Counted from the stretch's first letter, positions 1-59,150 are shown. The stretch: 64,000 bases of DNA from a virus (IMGVR_UViG_3300049926_000042:1-64000), one strand, 5' to 3'. Made by a program: numbers and translations. The notes: generated by a model not told the origin, from the sequence alone.

Positions 1-166
1 CGTAGAACGTGTCCTCGCCGACCATGTTGGTCACGGCCAGCATGACCAGCGCCGACTTGGTGTCGCGCGTCCAGGCCTGGCCACCCTCGAAGGTGGTCGT
101 CGGACCGGTCGTGGTGACCGGGCCGGTCGCTCGCGCTCGCGTACCGGGCTTGTTGAACTTCGACAT
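1..166 (-). CDS. rsr: TROVE/Ro60 (Rsr-like) RNA-binding protein, N-terminal part, truncated by window edge
   Basis: My translation from ATG at 166: MSKFNKPGTRARATGPVTTTGPTTTFEGGQAWTRDTKSALVMLAVTNMVGEDTFY. This resembles the N-terminus of actinobacterial TROVE proteins, and Y-RNA-like repeats lie upstream. Confidence 0.8.
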   Translation of the reverse strand, partial: MSKFNKPGTRARATGPVTTTGPTTTFEGGQAWTRDTKSALVMLAVTNMVGEDTFY

Positions 167-2541: not shown

Positions 2542-5039
<2,498 letters not shown>

Positions 5040-40928: not shown

Positions 40929-41152
40929 TCAGCCTGGAGTTCAAGGACGGCAATCTCTATCACGAGGACGGTCGCCTCTACACCGGCCCGAGGGTCTTCA
41001 GCTCAGGTGACTATCTGCCTGACGTCAGGGCGGAGCTGGTGACCGGCCTAAGGGCTTTGCCCGGCGTGGCCAACGATCCCCACACAGTGCCGGACATCAT
41101 GTCTCTGGTGGACACCTACGTCCGCCGGGCGAGGGGACACCATGACGAATAG
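40925..41152 (+). CDS. hypothetical protein
   Basis: Coupled ORF. Confidence 0.5.
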   Translation: MISLEFKDGNLYHEDGRLYTGPRVFSSGDYLPDVRAELVTGLRALPGVANDPHTVPDIMSLVDTYVRRARGHHDE

Positions 41153-41444
41153 CACCAACGAGAGCGGACAGGTGATCATCCGCCGCATCGTGGATGAGGA
41201 CACACTCCGGGAAGCTCTCGACGCGATGGCGGAGCTGAGGACAGTTGTCCGCCGTCTGTCCTCCGCCTTCAGTGAAGCTGTCCGTGTCCTTGACGAAGGG
41301 GACACGGGACAGGACACCGAGGACACCGACCCGCCGTCTCTGTCCTTCGTCCTGTGTCCTGTCCCGATCCACGCATGGGGAGGGACACACCCGCATCAGT
41401 GGACAGGACCGGCCGGACAGCTATGGATGTGTCCTGGCGCATAA
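41142..41444 (+). CDS. hypothetical protein, GGAC/GTCC-rich 3' half
   Basis: GAGGG RBS; coiled-coil N-terminus. Confidence 0.5.
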   Translation: MTNSTNESGQVIIRRIVDEDTLREALDAMAELRTVVRRLSSAFSEAVRVLDEGDTGQDTEDTDPPSLSFVLCPVPIHAWGGTHPHQWTGPAGQLWMCPGA

Positions 41445-41556
41445 CTGTCCCTGTCCCGTCCTTGTCCCCTCTGTCCGCTGGACAGGGGGGACACTCTTAT
41501 GGCCTACTGGACGGATCGAACCAATCGAATCATTGGCTGTCCGGAAGGTGGGGGAC

Positions 41557-42573
41557 ATGAGGCGTCCCGAATGGACGAAGCGTCACGTTGTCCCGGCAGG
41601 GACAGGACGTGTCCCCTGGTGGGTCAGGAAGGCCGTGGACATCGGGACACCGGTGGCCGTCGTCATGATGATGGTGCTGTGTGCGCCCGGTGAGCAGCAC
41701 CTAGCTCACCTCGCTGGCTGGACGACTCACATGGCCTGGCTTTTGTCCGGCCTCGTGGTCGCCTACGCGGGCATCGCGGCCGTGGAAGCCACTTCCCGGC
41801 CCCCCGGTGCCAAGGGCAAATTCTCGGCCGTCCTGGGTGCCGTTGTGGCCCTCGGACTGGCCATGGCCGCACAGCCCATCAGTCACCTGTTCGTCACCGA
41901 CTGGCTGTCGGCCAGTCCGCGTGCCCCTGTCTGGTTGATCGTGTCCGTGTCCTGTGTCCCGCCCTTGATCGTCGGACACCTGCTCCACCTGTCCGCGTCC
42001 CGTCCCGGTGTCTCCGTCCCGTCTGTGTCCGATCACGTAGGCCATGTCCTGTCCCTCATGGAGGAGGGACACGTCCGTGTGTCCGAGGACTCCGGGATAG
42101 AGAGGCCCGTCAGTACGTCCGACCTGATGTCCGCGTTCGGGATCAGTGACAGGACAGAGGGACGGGACATGACGGCTGCTGAGTTCGACGGCGAGGGACA
42201 GAACGTCTCGGACGTCCCGGTCGTCCCGGATCCGGACTGGAGTGGCGGACGTCCCGTCCCGTCCCGGGACGAGGACAGCACCGGGACACAGTCGGACAGC
42301 TGGTACGAGGATGACGGACAGCTCCGGCTGGCCGAGTCCAGTCCTGTCCCGCCCCGGACATGGGGGGCCGGTGTCCAGGACAGTGCCTCGGTTCGTGTTC
42401 GCCGGACAGCGGACGGATCCATGACGTCAGTCGTCAAGAGCGAGTTGTCCCGGGACGAGAACATTTCGGATGACGAACTTCGGGACATCCTGCGGGACAG
42501 GTTCGGACAGGACACGAAGACCAATTCGATCAGCAAGGCGATCAAGAGGGCACGGGAGGCGATGAGCGCATGA
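41557..42573 (+). CDS. Streptomyces plasmid spread protein-like (DUF2637/SpdB-like) multi-TM protein
   Basis: 4 TM helices, acidic low-complexity linker, C-terminal helical domain; directly upstream of the TraB-like gene. Confidence 0.65.
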   Translation: MRRPEWTKRHVVPAGTGRVPWWVRKAVDIGTPVAVVMMMVLCAPGEQHLAHLAGWTTHMAWLLSGLVVAYAGIAAVEATSRPPGAKGKFSAVLGAVVALGLAMAAQPISHLFVTDWLSASPRAPVWLIVSVSCVPPLIVGHLLHLSASRPGVSVPSVSDHVGHVLSLMEEGHVRVSEDSGIERPVSTSDLMSAFGISDRTEGRDMTAAEFDGEGQNVSDVPVVPDPDWSGGRPVPSRDEDSTGTQSDSWYEDDGQLRLAESSPVPPRTWGAGVQDSASVRVRRTADGSMTSVVKSELSRDENISDDELRDILRDRFGQDTKTNSISKAIKRAREAMSA

Positions 42574-44498
42574 GCCGGAGTCGGACCAACAACATGACCG
42601 ACGAGTCGATCAAGATTCAGCGGAGGGGGTACATGCCGATGCGTTACCGCATCGGTCCCTTCGTCACTCCGTGGCTGCTGATCGCCGGGGTCTTCATCAC
42701 CTCCGCGATCACTCACGCGTTCTGCTCCGGGCCACTGGCCTTGATGTTCCTGGCATTCACGATCGCCGGTCTGGTCTGGGTCACCTGGACCACCTGGGAC
42801 CGCAGGCACAAGCACGCGCGCAACGCAGCAACCGCCTTCGCGGCCGTCATGGGCGTCTGGCTGGCCACAGCCACGGCCACCTCCCCGATCTGGCCGCCGA
42901 TGCTGTACGCGTTCGCCATGGGCGGTGGCTTCATGGCCCTGACCTGGGACATCAGGTACGCGGGGATCACCCCGAGCAACAAGCACGACCGGATGGCCGG
43001 AGACATGGCCAACCCCTACGAGGCGATCAAGCGCCTGAAGGACGCCGTCCCGGTCAAGGTCAAAGAAGGCAACGGCAAGGTTCAGATCATCCTTCAGCAC
43101 CACAAGGGCAAGTCGACGACGGCAGACGTCCAGGCGGCCCGCGAGAACATCGCGGGCATCCACGCCGTGGACGGAAACTCTGTGTCTGTGGCCAAGGTCA
43201 AGGGCAGGGGCGACCAGACCGGGATCACAGTGCGGATCGACGACCCGACCGAGCAGGTGGTCAGGTGGCCGGGAGTCTCCGCCCCGGGCAAGAGCATCGC
43301 CGACGCGCCGCTCCGCATCGGTGTCCGCGAGGACGGACAGCCCATGTCCTTCTGGGTGACAGGTGACGATCTGCTGTCCCGCGCCGCCCCTCACACCCTC
43401 TGGACTGGGATGACAGGGTCCGGCAAGACTGCGGCGTTCATCCTGGGCACGCTGGAGATGATCTCCCGCATCGACTGTGCCCCGGTGGTCGCCGACCCCG
43501 AGAAGTTCATGCTGTCCTTCGGCGGTGTGATGGACGCGTTCGCCATCGCCGCCGATGGCCCGGAGCAGACCGAGCAGTTGATCGCCAACCTGCCCCCGGC
43601 ACTCCGCTATCGGGCCAGCCTGCTGGGGTCTCTGGGGTACGAGCAGTGGGAACCGGAGTGCTGGACGAAGTACGGCATCCCGGTGGTGCCGGTTCACATC
43701 GAGGAGGCGGCCGGATATCTGGCCACGAACAAGGACTTCAACAAGGCGATCATCCTGGCGCGTGCACTCGGCATGCCGATCAGCGCGTCACTCCAGGTCG
43801 CAGTGTTCCGCAACCTCCAGCGTGAGGCCCGGAGCCAGTTCGGCAACTCGATCGCGTTCGGTGTGAAGGAGAAGCAAGACGCTCAGTTCGCCCTCACTGA
43901 CGGCACCCTGAATGCCGGTGCGGACCCCACTCGGTGGGGCAACAACGAACCCGGCCGTTGCTACGCGGAGACCGTCGGTGTGCCTTCCGAGGAATGGGCG
44001 GTCAAGGCCCGTACCTTCAAGATCACACCGGCTGAGCGCAGGGCTTCGATCGAGATGGCCGACGAGGCAGGCCGGGCACGTATAGATGAAGGCACGTTCG
44101 ACCTGCTCAGCAGGGGTATCCACCGGCCGGTGCGGATGGTCGGAGTTCCCCAGATTCCGGATCTCTCGCAGGCTCCGACGGTTGAGCTTCCGACCGTCGC
44201 TGACCGGCCGACCTTGACCATGGTCAAGAACGAGGAGGTCCCGGGGGAGCGTCCCCCGCCGGACGTCGCCCGGGAAATGATGATGGACCGGCTGAGCGAG
44301 CTGGAGGACGCGGGCAAGACGATCGTGGTTGTGGCCGATTTCGCCCCGGTGGCCGATCTGCTGGAGCGTCACCGGACCTGGCCCTACACCGAACTCCGCC
44401 GGATTGAGAGGACGGGCCGGGTGGAGAAGGTCAAGGAAGTGGCAGGTCAGTGGCGTATCGTGCCCAAGGCCATGATCAAAGATCAAGAAAAAATGTAG
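42570..44498 (+). CDS. traB: TraB-like FtsK/SpoIIIE conjugative DNA translocase
   Basis: N-terminal TM helices; PLRIGVREDG; HTLWTGMTGSGKT Walker A; VHIEEAA Walker B; ARALG..SLQ; C-terminal wHTH. Confidence 0.82.
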   Translation: MSRSRTNNMTDESIKIQRRGYMPMRYRIGPFVTPWLLIAGVFITSAITHAFCSGPLALMFLAFTIAGLVWVTWTTWDRRHKHARNAATAFAAVMGVWLATATATSPIWPPMLYAFAMGGGFMALTWDIRYAGITPSNKHDRMAGDMANPYEAIKRLKDAVPVKVKEGNGKVQIILQHHKGKSTTADVQAARENIAGIHAVDGNSVSVAKVKGRGDQTGITVRIDDPTEQVVRWPGVSAPGKSIADAPLRIGVREDGQPMSFWVTGDDLLSRAAPHTLWTGMTGSGKTAAFILGTLEMISRIDCAPVVADPEKFMLSFGGVMDAFAIAADGPEQTEQLIANLPPALRYRASLLGSLGYEQWEPECWTKYGIPVVPVHIEEAAGYLATNKDFNKAIILARALGMPISASLQVAVFRNLQREARSQFGNSIAFGVKEKQDAQFALTDGTLNAGADPTRWGNNEPGRCYAETVGVPSEEWAVKARTFKITPAERRASIEMADEAGRARIDEGTFDLLSRGIHRPVRMVGVPQIPDLSQAPTVELPTVADRPTLTMVKNEEVPGERPPPDVAREMMMDRLSELEDAGKTIVVVADFAPVADLLERHRTWPYTELRRIERTGRVEKVKEVAGQWRIVPKAMIKDQEKM

Positions 44499-44530
44499 AT
44501 GTATGTAGAAGGTGCATCGGTGTAAGGGGC

Positions 44531-44597
44531 TGTGAACCGGTCCGTGAACCAGGGTGTGATCATCCTGTGATCGGACCGGTGAATTGATGAGTGATCG
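44531..44597 (+). repeat. clt-like periodic 8-bp repeats
   Basis: GTGA(A/T)(C/T) cores start at 44532, 44544, 44556, 44567, 44579, 44591 (period 11-12 bp), immediately after the traB stop. Confidence 0.65.
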
Positions 44598-44644
44598 ACT
44601 CCCAAGCTGGGGGTCCACGCGAAGTAAACGAGGAGGATCACAGG

Positions 44645-45040
44645 ATGCCCACCGAGGAAGATCGAGTACGCCTCGCGGAGATCGTGGAGTACACCCGCCA
44701 TGATCTTGCGCGCCGGGATGCGGCTGCCGATGTCGTCCCGGGCGGAGCGCAGCACGTGCACATCCATCACCACTACGCGCCGCCCCCGGCCCCCGTGCCG
44801 GTGCCCGAGATGGACATCGCGAGCAGGTACGCCGGGCACTTCGTCCTCGCGGTGTGGGCCATGATCGCCATGGCCGGGGTCGCAGTCGTCTTCGTCATGA
44901 TCGCGCAGGCGCTCATGATCGCGATGATCTCCCTGGCGATCTGCGCTCTGGCCTTCGCGGCGATGATCAAGTCTCTGCGCTACAGCAAGATCGACAAGCA
45001 GCTGGCGGACCAGCGCTCTCGCGGGCGCACGCGTAAGTGA
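44645..45040 (+). CDS. SpdD-like spread protein (2 TM)
   Basis: QHVHIHHHYAPPP followed by a TM hairpin and basic tail; GAGGA RBS. Confidence 0.6.
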   Translation: MPTEEDRVRLAEIVEYTRHDLARRDAAADVVPGGAQHVHIHHHYAPPPAPVPVPEMDIASRYAGHFVLAVWAMIAMAGVAVVFVMIAQALMIAMISLAICALAFAAMIKSLRYSKIDKQLADQRSRGRTRK

Positions 45041-45155
45041 GAGAGCGAGCACATGGATGCCCCCGGCCTACCGGCTGGGGGCATCTTTGGTCTAAAGAAT
45101 CTTGAACTATTTTCTGGCACCCCCTCTGAGCTGCGACGATGCACCATAAGATCAT

Positions 45156-45184
45156 TTGACATGGGGAATGGCCCGCTGTATGTT
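45156..45184 (+). promoter_or_regulatory. near-consensus sigma70/HrdB promoter
   Basis: TTGACA-N17-TATGTT. Confidence 0.7.
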
Positions 45185-45189
45185 TGTGT

Positions 45190-45480
45190 TGTACCGAAAG
45201 AACAACAACAGAACAGCGGGAGCGGCACCGGGAGACCAGAAGATCATCTAGGAATGATCGAATCGCCCGGCCACCGCAGAAAGATCGAAAGATCCCCGCC
45301 AACTGATCCATAAGGTATCGGCCCTAGATGACCGAAGCGCTCGGAGATAAGGCCCCCGAAAAGGCTAAGACCGCAGCAGAGACCATCGACAGAGTCTCGA
45401 AACGAAAAGCCGAAAGGCGAGCAAGATGATCGAATCCCCCGGTCGATCCCGGGGGCGATCATGCTTCACCGGCCGCCGCC
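45190..45480 (+). ncRNA. candidate structured ncRNA or long leader
   Basis: No credible ORF; A-rich with several hairpins (GATC-GAAA-GATC, GCC-GAAA-GGC, GAGAC..GTCTC, CCCCCGG..CCGGGGG); follows the strong promoter. Confidence 0.4.
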
Positions 45481-45539
45481 GTGATCACCGGGTTCGCTCG
45501 TACCCCTAAACGATGCTAGATCGAGTCGGCGGCCAGCAT

Positions 45540-45586
45540 GCTTCGAGGGCAGACAGTATGAGCCGGTTCGAATCCGGCCCGAAGCA
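45540..45586 (+). ncRNA. tRNA top-half mimic (acceptor stem + T arm only)
   Basis: GCTTCG..15 nt..GCCGG-TTCGAAT-CCGGC-CCGAAGC-A. Confidence 0.5.
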
Positions 45587-45667
45587 CTAGATCAGCGCGA
45601 CGACGAGAGGCATCGTTCCTCAATCGCAAGTCGCGCTGATCTTCACCTACGGACCAAGGAGCCGATC

Positions 45668-57859: not shown

Positions 57860-58050
57860 CCCTCGAAGAACTGTCCGATCACACCGCCAACGTCCGAGCC
57901 TGCCTCGACGCCAAGCGTCACCAGCTGGCCGATCTCGACCCGGCCACGGCAGCCGTCGTGACTTCTCAGATCAAAGCTCTGACTCCCCGGGTAGCAGAGC
58001 TGGAAGCCGCCTGCGATGCTCTCAGGCGGCTTCCCGTTGTGGCTGCTTAG
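57850..58050 (+). CDS. small coiled-coil hypothetical protein
   Basis: Last plus-strand ORF, convergent with the GT gene. Confidence 0.5.
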   Translation: MCMTLEELSDHTANVRACLDAKRHQLADLDPATAAVVTSQIKALTPRVAELEAACDALRRLPVVAA

Positions 58051-59150
58051 ACCACTATGCGTGACTTCTCCCGGCCGTGCTGGAGCGCGTATGCGTACTC
58101 CCAAGCATCAAGCCAGCGCCAGGCATTCGGTTCCAGCCGGAGACCGTCGGCCACGACACGCCCTCGCTGCGCCAAGTCCTCGCGCAGCTCCGGGCTTTCC
58201 TTCAGTCTCTTGATCGCCTGATACCAGCGACGGGGAGTGTCGGCCAGGATGCCGCACCCGCGCCGGTGCATCCGTTCGTACTCTGCTCGCGGGCTGCCGA
58301 TCCATGGCACACCGAGTGCGCTCAGCTCCAGTGGCTTGAGCCATGACTTGGCCGCGTTGAACTTCGTATCAGCCAGTGGGCACAGTCCGATGCCCAGCTC
58401 AGCCACCGCACCCGGCCACTGGTCGACACCGACCGGATCATGGCCCATTGGGTCTGTGGCGAGCCCGAAGGCTGCTCCGCATCCGGTTGCATCACCTATG
58501 ACCTGAAAGCCGCCAGGGCCCCCGCCAAACCGCGCCACGGCCCCGCCAAGCACGGAGGGGTCGTCCGGGTGTGAGCCCAGATTGGCAGGCCAGCCCACCA
58601 GATCGCTGTCGGTGTGTGGTACGCCGTAGTAGTGCTTCGGCAGATGGTTGTAGATCACTCGCCCACGGCCGTGTCTGGCATAGACGTCGAGCAGAGCAGG
58701 CGTCGAGACCGTGACGAGAGTTGCCTCTCGGCAGGACGCGGACAGATTCAGCCAGCTGTTGCGGCTGTAGCTTCCGGTCTGCCGGTTGCGCCTCCATTCA
58801 TTCTTCGGGTGATAGCCGTCGTACGCCGGGTTCCGGGGGTTGATCCGGGTGAGGTCGTCGTCGATGTCGACGACAACCGCGATCCCCTTCGCCCTCATGA
58901 TCGGGATGGCCTCGGTCATCCACCGGTGGGTGATCCGCTGGAACACGACCACGTCGGCATCCATATCCAGGACGTCCTCGACATAGGCAGCCTTGTCGTT
59001 CTGGCTACCGGCGATCTTCAGCTTGATGTCACGCCGGTCAGGGGTGCGAAGCTCGACCTTGTGGCCCTGCTCGATCAGTGCCTCGCTCGGCCAGATCATG
59101 CGGAAGCTGCCACATCCGGTACTGTCGGCCGGATAGACCGTGATCTTCAC
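58047..59150 (-). CDS. glycosyltransferase, GT-B fold (GT4-like)
   Basis: GCGSFR..WP, VVFQR, VVDIDD, TVSTPAL, N.AKS.LK.LE.SALG.P motifs. Confidence 0.85.
   Translation of the reverse strand: MKITVYPADSTGCGSFRMIWPSEALIEQGHKVELRTPDRRDIKLKIAGSQNDKAAYVEDVLDMDADVVVFQRITHRWMTEAIPIMRAKGIAVVVDIDDDLTRINPRNPAYDGYHPKNEWRRNRQTGSYSRNSWLNLSASCREATLVTVSTPALLDVYARHGRGRVIYNHLPKHYYGVPHTDSDLVGWPANLGSHPDDPSVLGGAVARFGGGPGGFQVIGDATGCGAAFGLATDPMGHDPVGVDQWPGAVAELGIGLCPLADTKFNAAKSWLKPLELSALGVPWIGSPRAEYERMHRRGCGILADTPRRWYQAIKRLKESPELREDLAQRGRVVADGLRLEPNAWRWLDAWEYAYALQHGREKSRIVV

Follow-up and report, generated by a model that had tools for sequence, protein, structure and literature searches.

The virus sequence IMGVR_UViG_3300049926_000042, whose first 64,000 nucleotides (nt) are here called the window, encodes a full-length homologue of the plasmid transfer protein TraB, an FtsK-like translocase of double-stranded DNA (dsDNA) with a membrane anchor, followed directly by a phased repeat array at the position that clt occupies in plasmids. 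Streptomyces and its relatives grow as compartmentalised, multicellular hyphae, and their plasmids possess a unique one-protein dsDNA pump that crosses walls. By analogy with those plasmids, it is moderately probable that a functional TraB–clt module of the phage itself carries phage dsDNA from one hyphal compartment or cell to another without virions. The window covers the first 64 kb of an IMG/VR virus record of 87,315 bp (CheckV 96% complete), and statements on the genome below refer to that record. The module lies on the plus strand and comprises a gene for a four-transmembrane (4-TM) protein (41557–42573), traB (42570–44498), the clt-like array (44532–44596), and a gene for a 2-TM protein (44645–45040).

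The 642-amino-acid TraB matches the NCBIfam profile NF041214 (plasmid_TraB) with an E value of 3.1e-112 and a score of 376 bits, the best stretch covering profile positions 5–480 of 639. When TraB was compared by tblastn with 72,556 plasmids, 51 actinomycete records were matched, 45 of which are from Streptomyces, and identity to annotated traB genes, including those of pJV1, pSN22, and pWTY27, is 26–32% across 93–98% of TraB. The first-pass annotation, which had labelled the gene as TraB of the Streptomyces-plasmid type, is borne out by the profile match and these full-length plasmid matches. On sequence comparison, TraB is a true full-length homologue of the plasmid TraB proteins of the pJV1/pSN22/pWTY27 type, placed on a separate branch and not an equivalog at the NCBI threshold.

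Because the Pfam search was empty and a profile search against PDB sequences reached FtsK at an E value of just 0.5, a fold search was needed. An AlphaFold model of TraB, built on 26 homologues (mean pLDDT 79), contains from N to C terminus four helices (residues 24–132, nt 42639–42965), a β-rich domain, an ATPase core (residues 275–500), a disordered linker, and a predicted winged helix (residues 564–630, nt 44259–44459) with the topology H-E-H-H-E-E and pLDDT 81–92. The N-terminal membrane anchor also shows up as hydrophobic segments in the sequence. The top Foldseek structures are the FtsK motor domains 6T8B, 2IUT, and 2IUS (E ~1e-14, target TM-scores 0.60–0.65), and the conjugative coupling protein TcpA and EccC rank next. 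In the Walker A motif GMTGSGKT (residues 280–287, nt 43407–43430), Gly280, Gly283, Gly285, and Lys286 are invariant in the 26 homologues; in the Walker B box IEEA (residues 377–380, about nt 43698–43709), Glu379 is invariant and Glu378 nearly so. Arg421 and Gln423 are invariant among homologues down to 31% identity, and pairwise dN/dS between relatives is 0.27–0.52, a sign of purifying selection. An ATPase with N-terminal transmembrane helices and a winged helix-turn-helix (wHTH) at its C terminus, as had been described at first sight, is thus confirmed by the NF041214 match, the FtsK-motor fold, and the Walker motifs, the wHTH being a predicted structure.

TraB and FtsK/SpoIIIE are alike in the motor fold, the P-loop, the arginine-finger region, and (for TraB, by prediction) sequence-directed loading via a winged helix, whereas the N-terminal domain of TraB is a different one. 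The targets of FtsK/SpoIIIE are dispersed polar sites of the KOPS/SRS type, in contrast to the repeats of the window, which are clustered beside the gene. FtsK-like proteins were also found by a BFVD fold search in some deposited phage proteomes, the top matches being 14–18% identical to TraB.

The array consists of six direct GTGAW[CT] repeats in the gap between traB and the 2-TM gene. The copies begin at 44532, 44544, 44556, 44567, 44579, and 44591 (spacings 12, 12, 11, 12, and 12 nt), 34–98 nt past the traB stop (44498), so that the periodic repeats first noticed behind the ATPase gene are present there in six copies, 11–12 nt apart. Nowhere else in the 87-kb genome do four or more such sites fall within 70 nt; when an equal number of sites was placed at random, six within 70 nt occurred in 1 of 5000 placements, for a motif that was chosen post hoc. 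Relatives, too, have an array in the gap between traB and the gene that follows it, with 4–8 copies spaced 10–14 nt apart. Their core varies by subclade, being GTGA in that of the window, TGTCA(G) (the complement of CTGACA) in the next ones, and CTGAC/GTCAG or TGTCGG in that of the Streptomyces replicon pS1D4-14.2. A segment of the winged helix tracks the array motif (R-x-R-T-W in the GTGA group, R-x-R-(P/G/A/V)-W elsewhere), a correlation that is confounded with phylogeny.

All nine plasmid TraB homologues examined likewise have a short direct-repeat array directly 3′ of traB, with CCGCACA repeats in pJV1 and pSN22 and TGACAC(C) repeats in pWTY27, pSSPS4.7b, pRL1, pCQ3, and plasmids of Amycolatopsis, Thermobispora, and Nonomuraea. 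The clt of pWTY27, which is needed for transfer, consists of 16 bp of the tra gene and the adjacent 159 bp, and the TraB homologue of this plasmid footprints on the TGACACC repeats; the clt of pJV1 contains nine 9-bp repeats, CCGCACA(C/G)(C/G) (PMC3583192). The array of the window sits in the clt position of pJV1, pSN22, and pWTY27 and is alike in kind and partly in sequence. The clt label proposed earlier is supported by the position and type of the array; its repeat core, GTGAWC, differs from CCGCACA and TGACACC. By this analogy, the GTGAWC array is the positional and probably the functional equivalent of clt. The phage genome is the likely cargo, because it is the phage's own DNA that bears the phased array, at the orthologous clt position.

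TraB is a regular component of a phage lineage. In a search of 5.8 billion proteins, 88 TraB homologues were found at 31–73% identity, many of them on contigs of 78–89 kb, and an alignment-based scan of IMG/VR with TraB gave 18 loci on contigs of 29–98 kb. A single-protein TraB scan of viral contigs was empty, and comparison of the locus or of TraB with 50,697 phage records, a set that may lack near relatives, gave no match by megablast and tblastn, nor did the same comparison with the TraB of pS1D4-14.2. Across the TraB loci, the order of glycosyltransferase genes, 4-TM gene, traB, and 2-TM gene is kept. The major capsid protein of the window genome was found on each of the 10 TraB contigs tested (52–68% identity), several of which have direct terminal repeats and are rated 100% complete, and a scan that started from the capsid protein yielded one further complete genome, likewise with TraB. 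In total, TraB is present in 12 of the 12 complete or near-complete genomes of the lineage, and TraB, a repeat array, and the 2-TM gene are found again in at least 12 complete related phage genomes and in pS1D4-14.2. A maximum-likelihood tree places 17 phage TraB proteins opposite nine plasmid TraB proteins across one branch (SH-aLRT 100). Because all 12 genomes carry TraB, the phage proteins form one branch, and dN/dS is 0.27–0.52, these comparisons indicate that the module is old in the phage lineage and kept by selection. The earlier idea of a plasmid piece inside a phage, or of a hybrid, thus gives way to a vertically inherited core module. In the literature, of which the coverage was incomplete, no description of a TraB–clt module as a conserved part of a phage lineage was found. 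A distant relative (G012; 82.9 kb, terminal repeats, capsid 44% identical) encodes, instead of TraB, a divergent FtsK-like ATPase of 590 amino acids (L056, 754–2526), which is aligned by hhalign with an E value of 2.4e-5 over 232 columns.

The window genome is that of a complete tailed phage that infects a filamentous actinomycete of soil, and it encodes terminase, portal, major head protein, head–tail adaptor, major tail protein, tape measure, and endolysin, thereby containing the complete virion module that characterizes a pZL12-like phage-plasmid. The large terminase gene lies at 2542–3918 on the minus strand, and the last 23 kb of the genome contain the genes for portal, a MuF-like fusion, major head protein, head–tail adaptor, major tail protein, and tape measure. 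Genes for a primase, a family-A DNA polymerase, and a helicase-nuclease are also present. The first ~125 bases of the contig are found again at its far end, ahead of a poly-G run (window 1–150, genome 87165–87315), and the assembly closes on itself because of this recurrence. From the end repeat, the genome is a closed circle or terminally redundant, although its class in IMG/VR is linear, and the poly-G run is an artefact. GC content is 60–65% evenly along the genome, and GC at third codon positions is 0.85 in traB and alike in the flanking genes.

In the plasmid systems, TraB forms a hexameric pore, its wHTH recognises clt, and TraB acts together with Spd proteins in intramycelial spreading (PMC4447253). 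In the mechanism that we infer for the phage, which extends to DNA binding, pumping, partners, cargo, and timing of transfer, the four helices would anchor TraB in the membrane, where it would assemble as an FtsK-like ring. The C-terminal winged helix would dock on the phased GTGAWC array behind its own gene, and the motor would pump the unprocessed phage genome across the envelope into the next compartment of the hypha or into a hypha in contact with it. Its membrane or septal partners, analogous to the plasmid Spd proteins, may be the coupled 4-TM protein and the 2-TM protein, which is co-inherited and His-rich. In pS1D4-14.2 and other temperate relatives, the module would let the prophage conjugate in the manner of a plasmid. 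That the phage DNA moves independently of virions is a reasonable inference, because a genuine plasmid-type TraB is combined with repeats at the clt position.

The two candidate partners belong to the phage lineage. The 4-TM protein (338 residues) has hydrophobic segments at residues 26–44, 58–76, 90–108, and 125–143, followed by an acidic linker that varies and, at the C terminus, by a small helical domain that is conserved. Its stop codon is joined to the traB start in an ATGA overlap, and the multi-TM gene translationally coupled to the ATPase gene, as first proposed, is confirmed by the four segments and this overlap. About 10 related loci have a homologue of the 4-TM gene immediately upstream of traB (34–61% identity). 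The 2-TM open reading frame (ORF) extends from 44591 to 45040 (149 residues), but the ATG at 44645, which is preceded by the ribosome-binding site GAGGAGG, is the more probable start and gives a protein of 131 residues. This protein comprises an N-terminal cytoplasmic part, a Pro-rich linker, a two-TM hairpin (45 hydrophobic residues), and a basic tail; a 2-TM gene after the repeats is accordingly present, with a single hairpin. With a profile of the 2-TM family, every subclade, that of pS1D4-14.2 included, was found to have a copy 0.1–1.6 kb downstream of traB (E 1e-10 to 1e-19); pJV1, pWTY27, pSN22, pSSPS4.7b, pZL12, and the pCQ3 locus gave no match. The family has just 65 cluster representatives in 1.84 billion proteins and no Pfam family.

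Neither flanking protein was assigned to a family by Pfam, NCBIfam, or PHROG searches or matched in the 72,556 plasmids by tblastn, and a six-frame search of the window genome (G000) with PF10935 and PF19764 gave no match. The labels 'Spd-like' and 'SpdD-like' are thus not sustained for either protein by family searches, plasmid tblastn, or hhalign; 'Spd-like' is an analogy of position and architecture, with no family assignment. The 4-TM protein and SpdB2 (DUF2637-type) are both four-TM proteins that are adjacent to traB and coupled, an architectural likeness only, and SpdB2 differs in that the DUF2637 match fails for the 4-TM protein. Thoma et al. (2015; PMC4447253) noted homologues of SpdB2 in phiC31 and VWB, both actinophages. 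For the 4-TM protein, a protein-language model pointed to DUF2637 (score 0.89), which found no support in hidden Markov model and profile tests, and hhalign of a flanking protein with the DUF2637/SpdB2-like protein of pWTY27 returned a probability of 0.13%. For the 2-TM protein, a protein-atlas lead to DUF6251 (scores 0.90–0.94) likewise found no support in such tests, and none of the 65 representatives is in DUF6251. In one lineage member (G010), the slot upstream of traB is occupied by the gene for a bona fide DUF2637 protein of the SpdB2 type (L021, 4248–5306; E 2e-15, and 2.7e-13 with Pfam), which is weakly similar to the 4-TM protein of the window over the last ~45 residues only; G010 is also the sole carrier of ParA among 12 relatives. 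A His-rich motif, HVHIHHHYAP, lies before the Pro-rich linker of the 2-TM protein (residues 36–45, window 44750–44780), and its family form, HVHxHHHYAP, is kept in the homologues in L004–L021; this motif may be a metal-binding or wall-spanning element.

Upstream of traB lies a tract of about 1.5 kb (41100–42600) with 62 copies of the pentamer GGACA/TGTCC in both orientations. The pentamer density is 41 per kb in the tract and 2.9 per kb in the rest of the genome, and the three densest 500-nt bins in 87 kb all fall in the tract. It extends from small ORFs upstream of the 4-TM gene across that gene, sparing the TM-coding core, and ends at the traB start; among its elements are a perfect inverted repeat of 13 nt and palindromes, for example GGACA-N2-TGTCC. 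In an unbiased count of 5-mers in the 1.8 kb upstream of traB, GGACA ranks first by enrichment at 9 of 17 loci and is one of the four leading 5-mers at 12 of 17, which represent all subclades. The pentamer is one base off the core of the plasmid repeat TGACA(C/G). The tract is a new feature and is conserved across the phage lineage. It could be a second loading zone for TraB, a regulatory or centromere-like site, or a target of the C-terminal domain of the 4-TM protein.

One of the IMG/VR TraB loci belongs to pS1D4-14.2 (NZ_CP041606.1; L022/L023), a 98,815-bp 'plasmid' of Streptomyces sp. S1D4-14. This strain comes from a forest-soil Streptomyces population with extrachromosomal elements of 98.8 to 394 kb, identified in silico or by pulsed-field gel electrophoresis (Tidjani et al., 2019; PMC6722414). 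The annotation of pS1D4-14.2 includes portal, major capsid, tape measure, and terminase as well as ParA, ParB, a tyrosine integrase, an XRE regulator, and WhiB. It resembles the window genome in terminase (62% identity), major capsid (57%), MuF-like protein (57%), tape measure (56%), portal (55%), and TraB (32%), in its collinear structural genes, and in having a repeat array after traB, a 2-TM protein, and WhiB. It differs in possessing ParA, the tyrosine integrase, the XRE regulator, and a P4-type primase, in its GC content (69% versus 63% in the window genome), and in the tract upstream of traB, which has a motif different from GGACA. The replicon is deposited and typed as a non-mobilizable plasmid and not recognised as a phage. 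Because a full virion module, TraB, ParA/ParB, and an integrase are all encoded, pS1D4-14.2 is, from its gene content, an unrecognised phage-plasmid of a cultured strain. Since it belongs to the lineage, the lineage infects Streptomyces-like hosts, and at least one member is an extrachromosomal prophage. The homologue in pS1D4-14.2 (L023, 28898–31084) of the window gene at 58047–59150 (minus strand) is annotated as a LAGLIDADG homing endonuclease, and the alignment of the two is confined to the ends (residues 1–254 and 627–720), which suggests that the pS1D4-14.2 homologue carries an intein or homing-endonuclease insertion that is absent from the window genome.

The window genome has a different set of lifestyle genes. 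Neither a tyrosine nor a serine recombinase is encoded in its 87 kb, ParA was not found with AAA_31 or by tblastn with the ParA of pS1D4-14.2, and the integrase and XRE regulator of that replicon have no homologue in it. ParB-like domains are present, one ParB-like gene being 39% identical to the ParB of pS1D4-14.2, and these are all that was found of a plasmid maintenance system with ParA/ParB and plasmid-type replication. Nor does the genome, having no recombinase, contain the integrase/excision module that, with a rep gene beside traB, marks an actinomycete integrative and conjugative element (AICE). Integrases occur in 4 of 12 related genomes, all in a distal subclade, and ParA occurs in 1 of 12. 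The description as a 'phage-plasmid or AICE hybrid' consequently suits relatives better than the window phage, which is without integrase, ParA, and TraR, and such a lifestyle is shown for the relative pS1D4-14.2 only.

Among known systems, the Streptomyces plasmids pJV1, pSN22, and pWTY27 share with the module a full-length TraB (TM anchor, FtsK-like motor, C-terminal winged helix), a repeat array right after tra, coupling with a small upstream gene, and membrane-protein genes alongside. Compared with them, the module of the window is distinguished by its divergent TraB (26–32% identity), the absence of TraA, of a GntR-type TraR/KorA, and of a recognisable Spd protein, its location in a genome of 87 kb that encodes virions, partner proteins of its own, and the 1.5-kb GGACA tract. 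An experimental precedent for a dual virion-and-mating lifestyle is pZL12/phage ZL12 (GQ919031), a plasmid-phage of Streptomyces that measures 90.4 kb and whose transfer locus has been defined by experiment (Zhong et al., 2010, J Bacteriol 192:3747, as cited in PMC3583192 and PMC4487206). Like the lineage described here, it is a Streptomyces element of ~90 kb with tailed virions and an FtsK-like conjugal transfer locus; unlike the window genome, it has ParA/ParB and an integrase. According to PMC3583192, transfer of pZL12 requires tra and two adjacent genes, not tra and clt. Kinship with pZL12 was rejected, as tblastn gave no match and comparison of pZL12.71c with the TraB profile by hhalign gave an E value of 2e-3 and a probability of 14%. 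In the 14-kb conjugative plasmid pWTY27, a gene annotated as 'phage major capsid protein' lies just downstream of traB–clt (L029, 10642–12102).

Several observations weigh against transfer of the phage genome by a TraB–clt module. The 376 bits of TraB are far under the equivalog cut-off of NF041214 (800 bits), because of which functional equivalence is not guaranteed, and the Pfam family FtsK_SpoIIIE is unmatched even at an E value of 10. The GTGAAC/GTGATC core differs from the TGACAC-type core of plasmids and other subclades, and the far larger GGACA tract competes with the GTGAWC array as the real target of TraB. No homology to Spd proteins was detected for either of the membrane proteins that flank traB. 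A GntR-type TraR/KorA, the Kil–Kor regulator, is absent (no PF00392 match in the 87-kb genome); a GntR regulator stands beside traB in pJV1, pWTY27, pSN22, pSSPS4.7b, and others. Finally, a host-killing phage has a less obvious need for conjugation. A rather unlikely alternative is that the element is an extrachromosomal plasmid-prophage that uses TraB–clt for classical Streptomyces conjugation between mycelia, as for pZL12. The extrachromosomal state of pS1D4-14.2 in a cultured Streptomyces, its ParA, ParB, and tyrosine integrase, and the related ParB-like gene of the window genome speak for such a prophage, whereas the lack of ParA, recombinase, XRE repressor homologue, and GntR regulator in the window genome and the restricted occurrence of integrases and ParA among its relatives argue against it. 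TraB is kept with or without recognisable lysogeny functions, which argues that its use is not limited to conjugating a resident plasmid-prophage. Because genes for integration, partition, and TraR are missing here, spread of a replicating genome through the mycelium is favoured over stable plasmid conjugation. A more novel reading is tentative and less likely than not: a phage without recognisable lysogeny functions would drive replicating genomes through hyphal cross-walls and into hyphae in contact, by means of a plasmid-derived TraB–clt pump, orphan membrane partners of its own, and the GGACA tract as a landing zone.

Other uses of the translocase appear less probable still. While vegetative or sporulation septa are closing, a clt-specific pump might move or clear phage genomes across them, so that daughter compartments or spores receive the genome, in the manner of FtsK/SpoIIIE/SffA; the FtsK-motor fold as best structural match, the description of TraB as derived from septal translocators (PMC4447253), and the conservation of traB in members with and without lysogeny genes are consistent with this role, which we nevertheless regard as improbable, given that the characterised members of the TraB family all act in intermycelial transfer and spreading and that persistence of these phages in spores is without evidence. 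Slightly lower is the standing of a co-option for mobilising host chromosomal or plasmid DNA, for excluding incoming conjugative elements or phages, or for a GGACA-linked membrane tether in replication or partition. Chromosomal markers are mobilised in trans by TraB via clt-like sites (PMC6722414), the GGACA tract is of a size unlike any described clt, and the TraB partners are lineage-specific orphans, but the phased array sits at the orthologous position of clt, and on DNA of the phage itself. That the module reflects a chimeric assembly or a recent insertion of an AICE or plasmid into a phage, as the metagenome origin of the contig might suggest, is extremely improbable: the same gene order recurs in 18 independent viral contigs and one isolate replicon, TraB occurs in all 12 complete lineage genomes and is monophyletic relative to plasmid TraB, composition is uniform, and no integrase, direct-repeat border, or plasmid replication gene lies beside the module. 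Mis-assembly in particular was ruled out by the conserved synteny in independent assemblies.

If the phage indeed transfers its replicating genome by TraB, one infection would pass along a multicellular mycelium with no virion stage outside the cells, which would constitute a new viral cell-to-cell route in bacteria. The lineage comprises at least 13 complete genomes of 79–98 kb, some without any lysogeny genes. That the pump, its docking repeats, and dedicated partners are a conserved core of such a lineage suggests that, in mycelial bacteria, viruses may routinely pair spread by virions with DNA transfer straight from cell to cell. Such transfer would affect views of phage host range, plaque formation, defence, and gene flow in soil. 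Should the module merely duplicate the pZL12 case, it would still represent a second, independent origin of a virion-plus-mating lifestyle. The question is directly testable because the relative pS1D4-14.2 resides in a cultured Streptomyces strain.

Behind the 2-TM gene lies a non-coding stretch of 630 nt (45040–45667). A sequence resembling a tRNA T-arm, GGTTCGAATCC, is located near 45563; a tRNA or attP at this site was rejected, as ARAGORN found no tRNA, Rfam gave no family, and the genome has no integrase. The same stretch contains the sole sigma-70-like promoter match of the region (45156–45184) and three copies of ATGATCGAATCNCCCGG, at 45254, 45328, and 45426.

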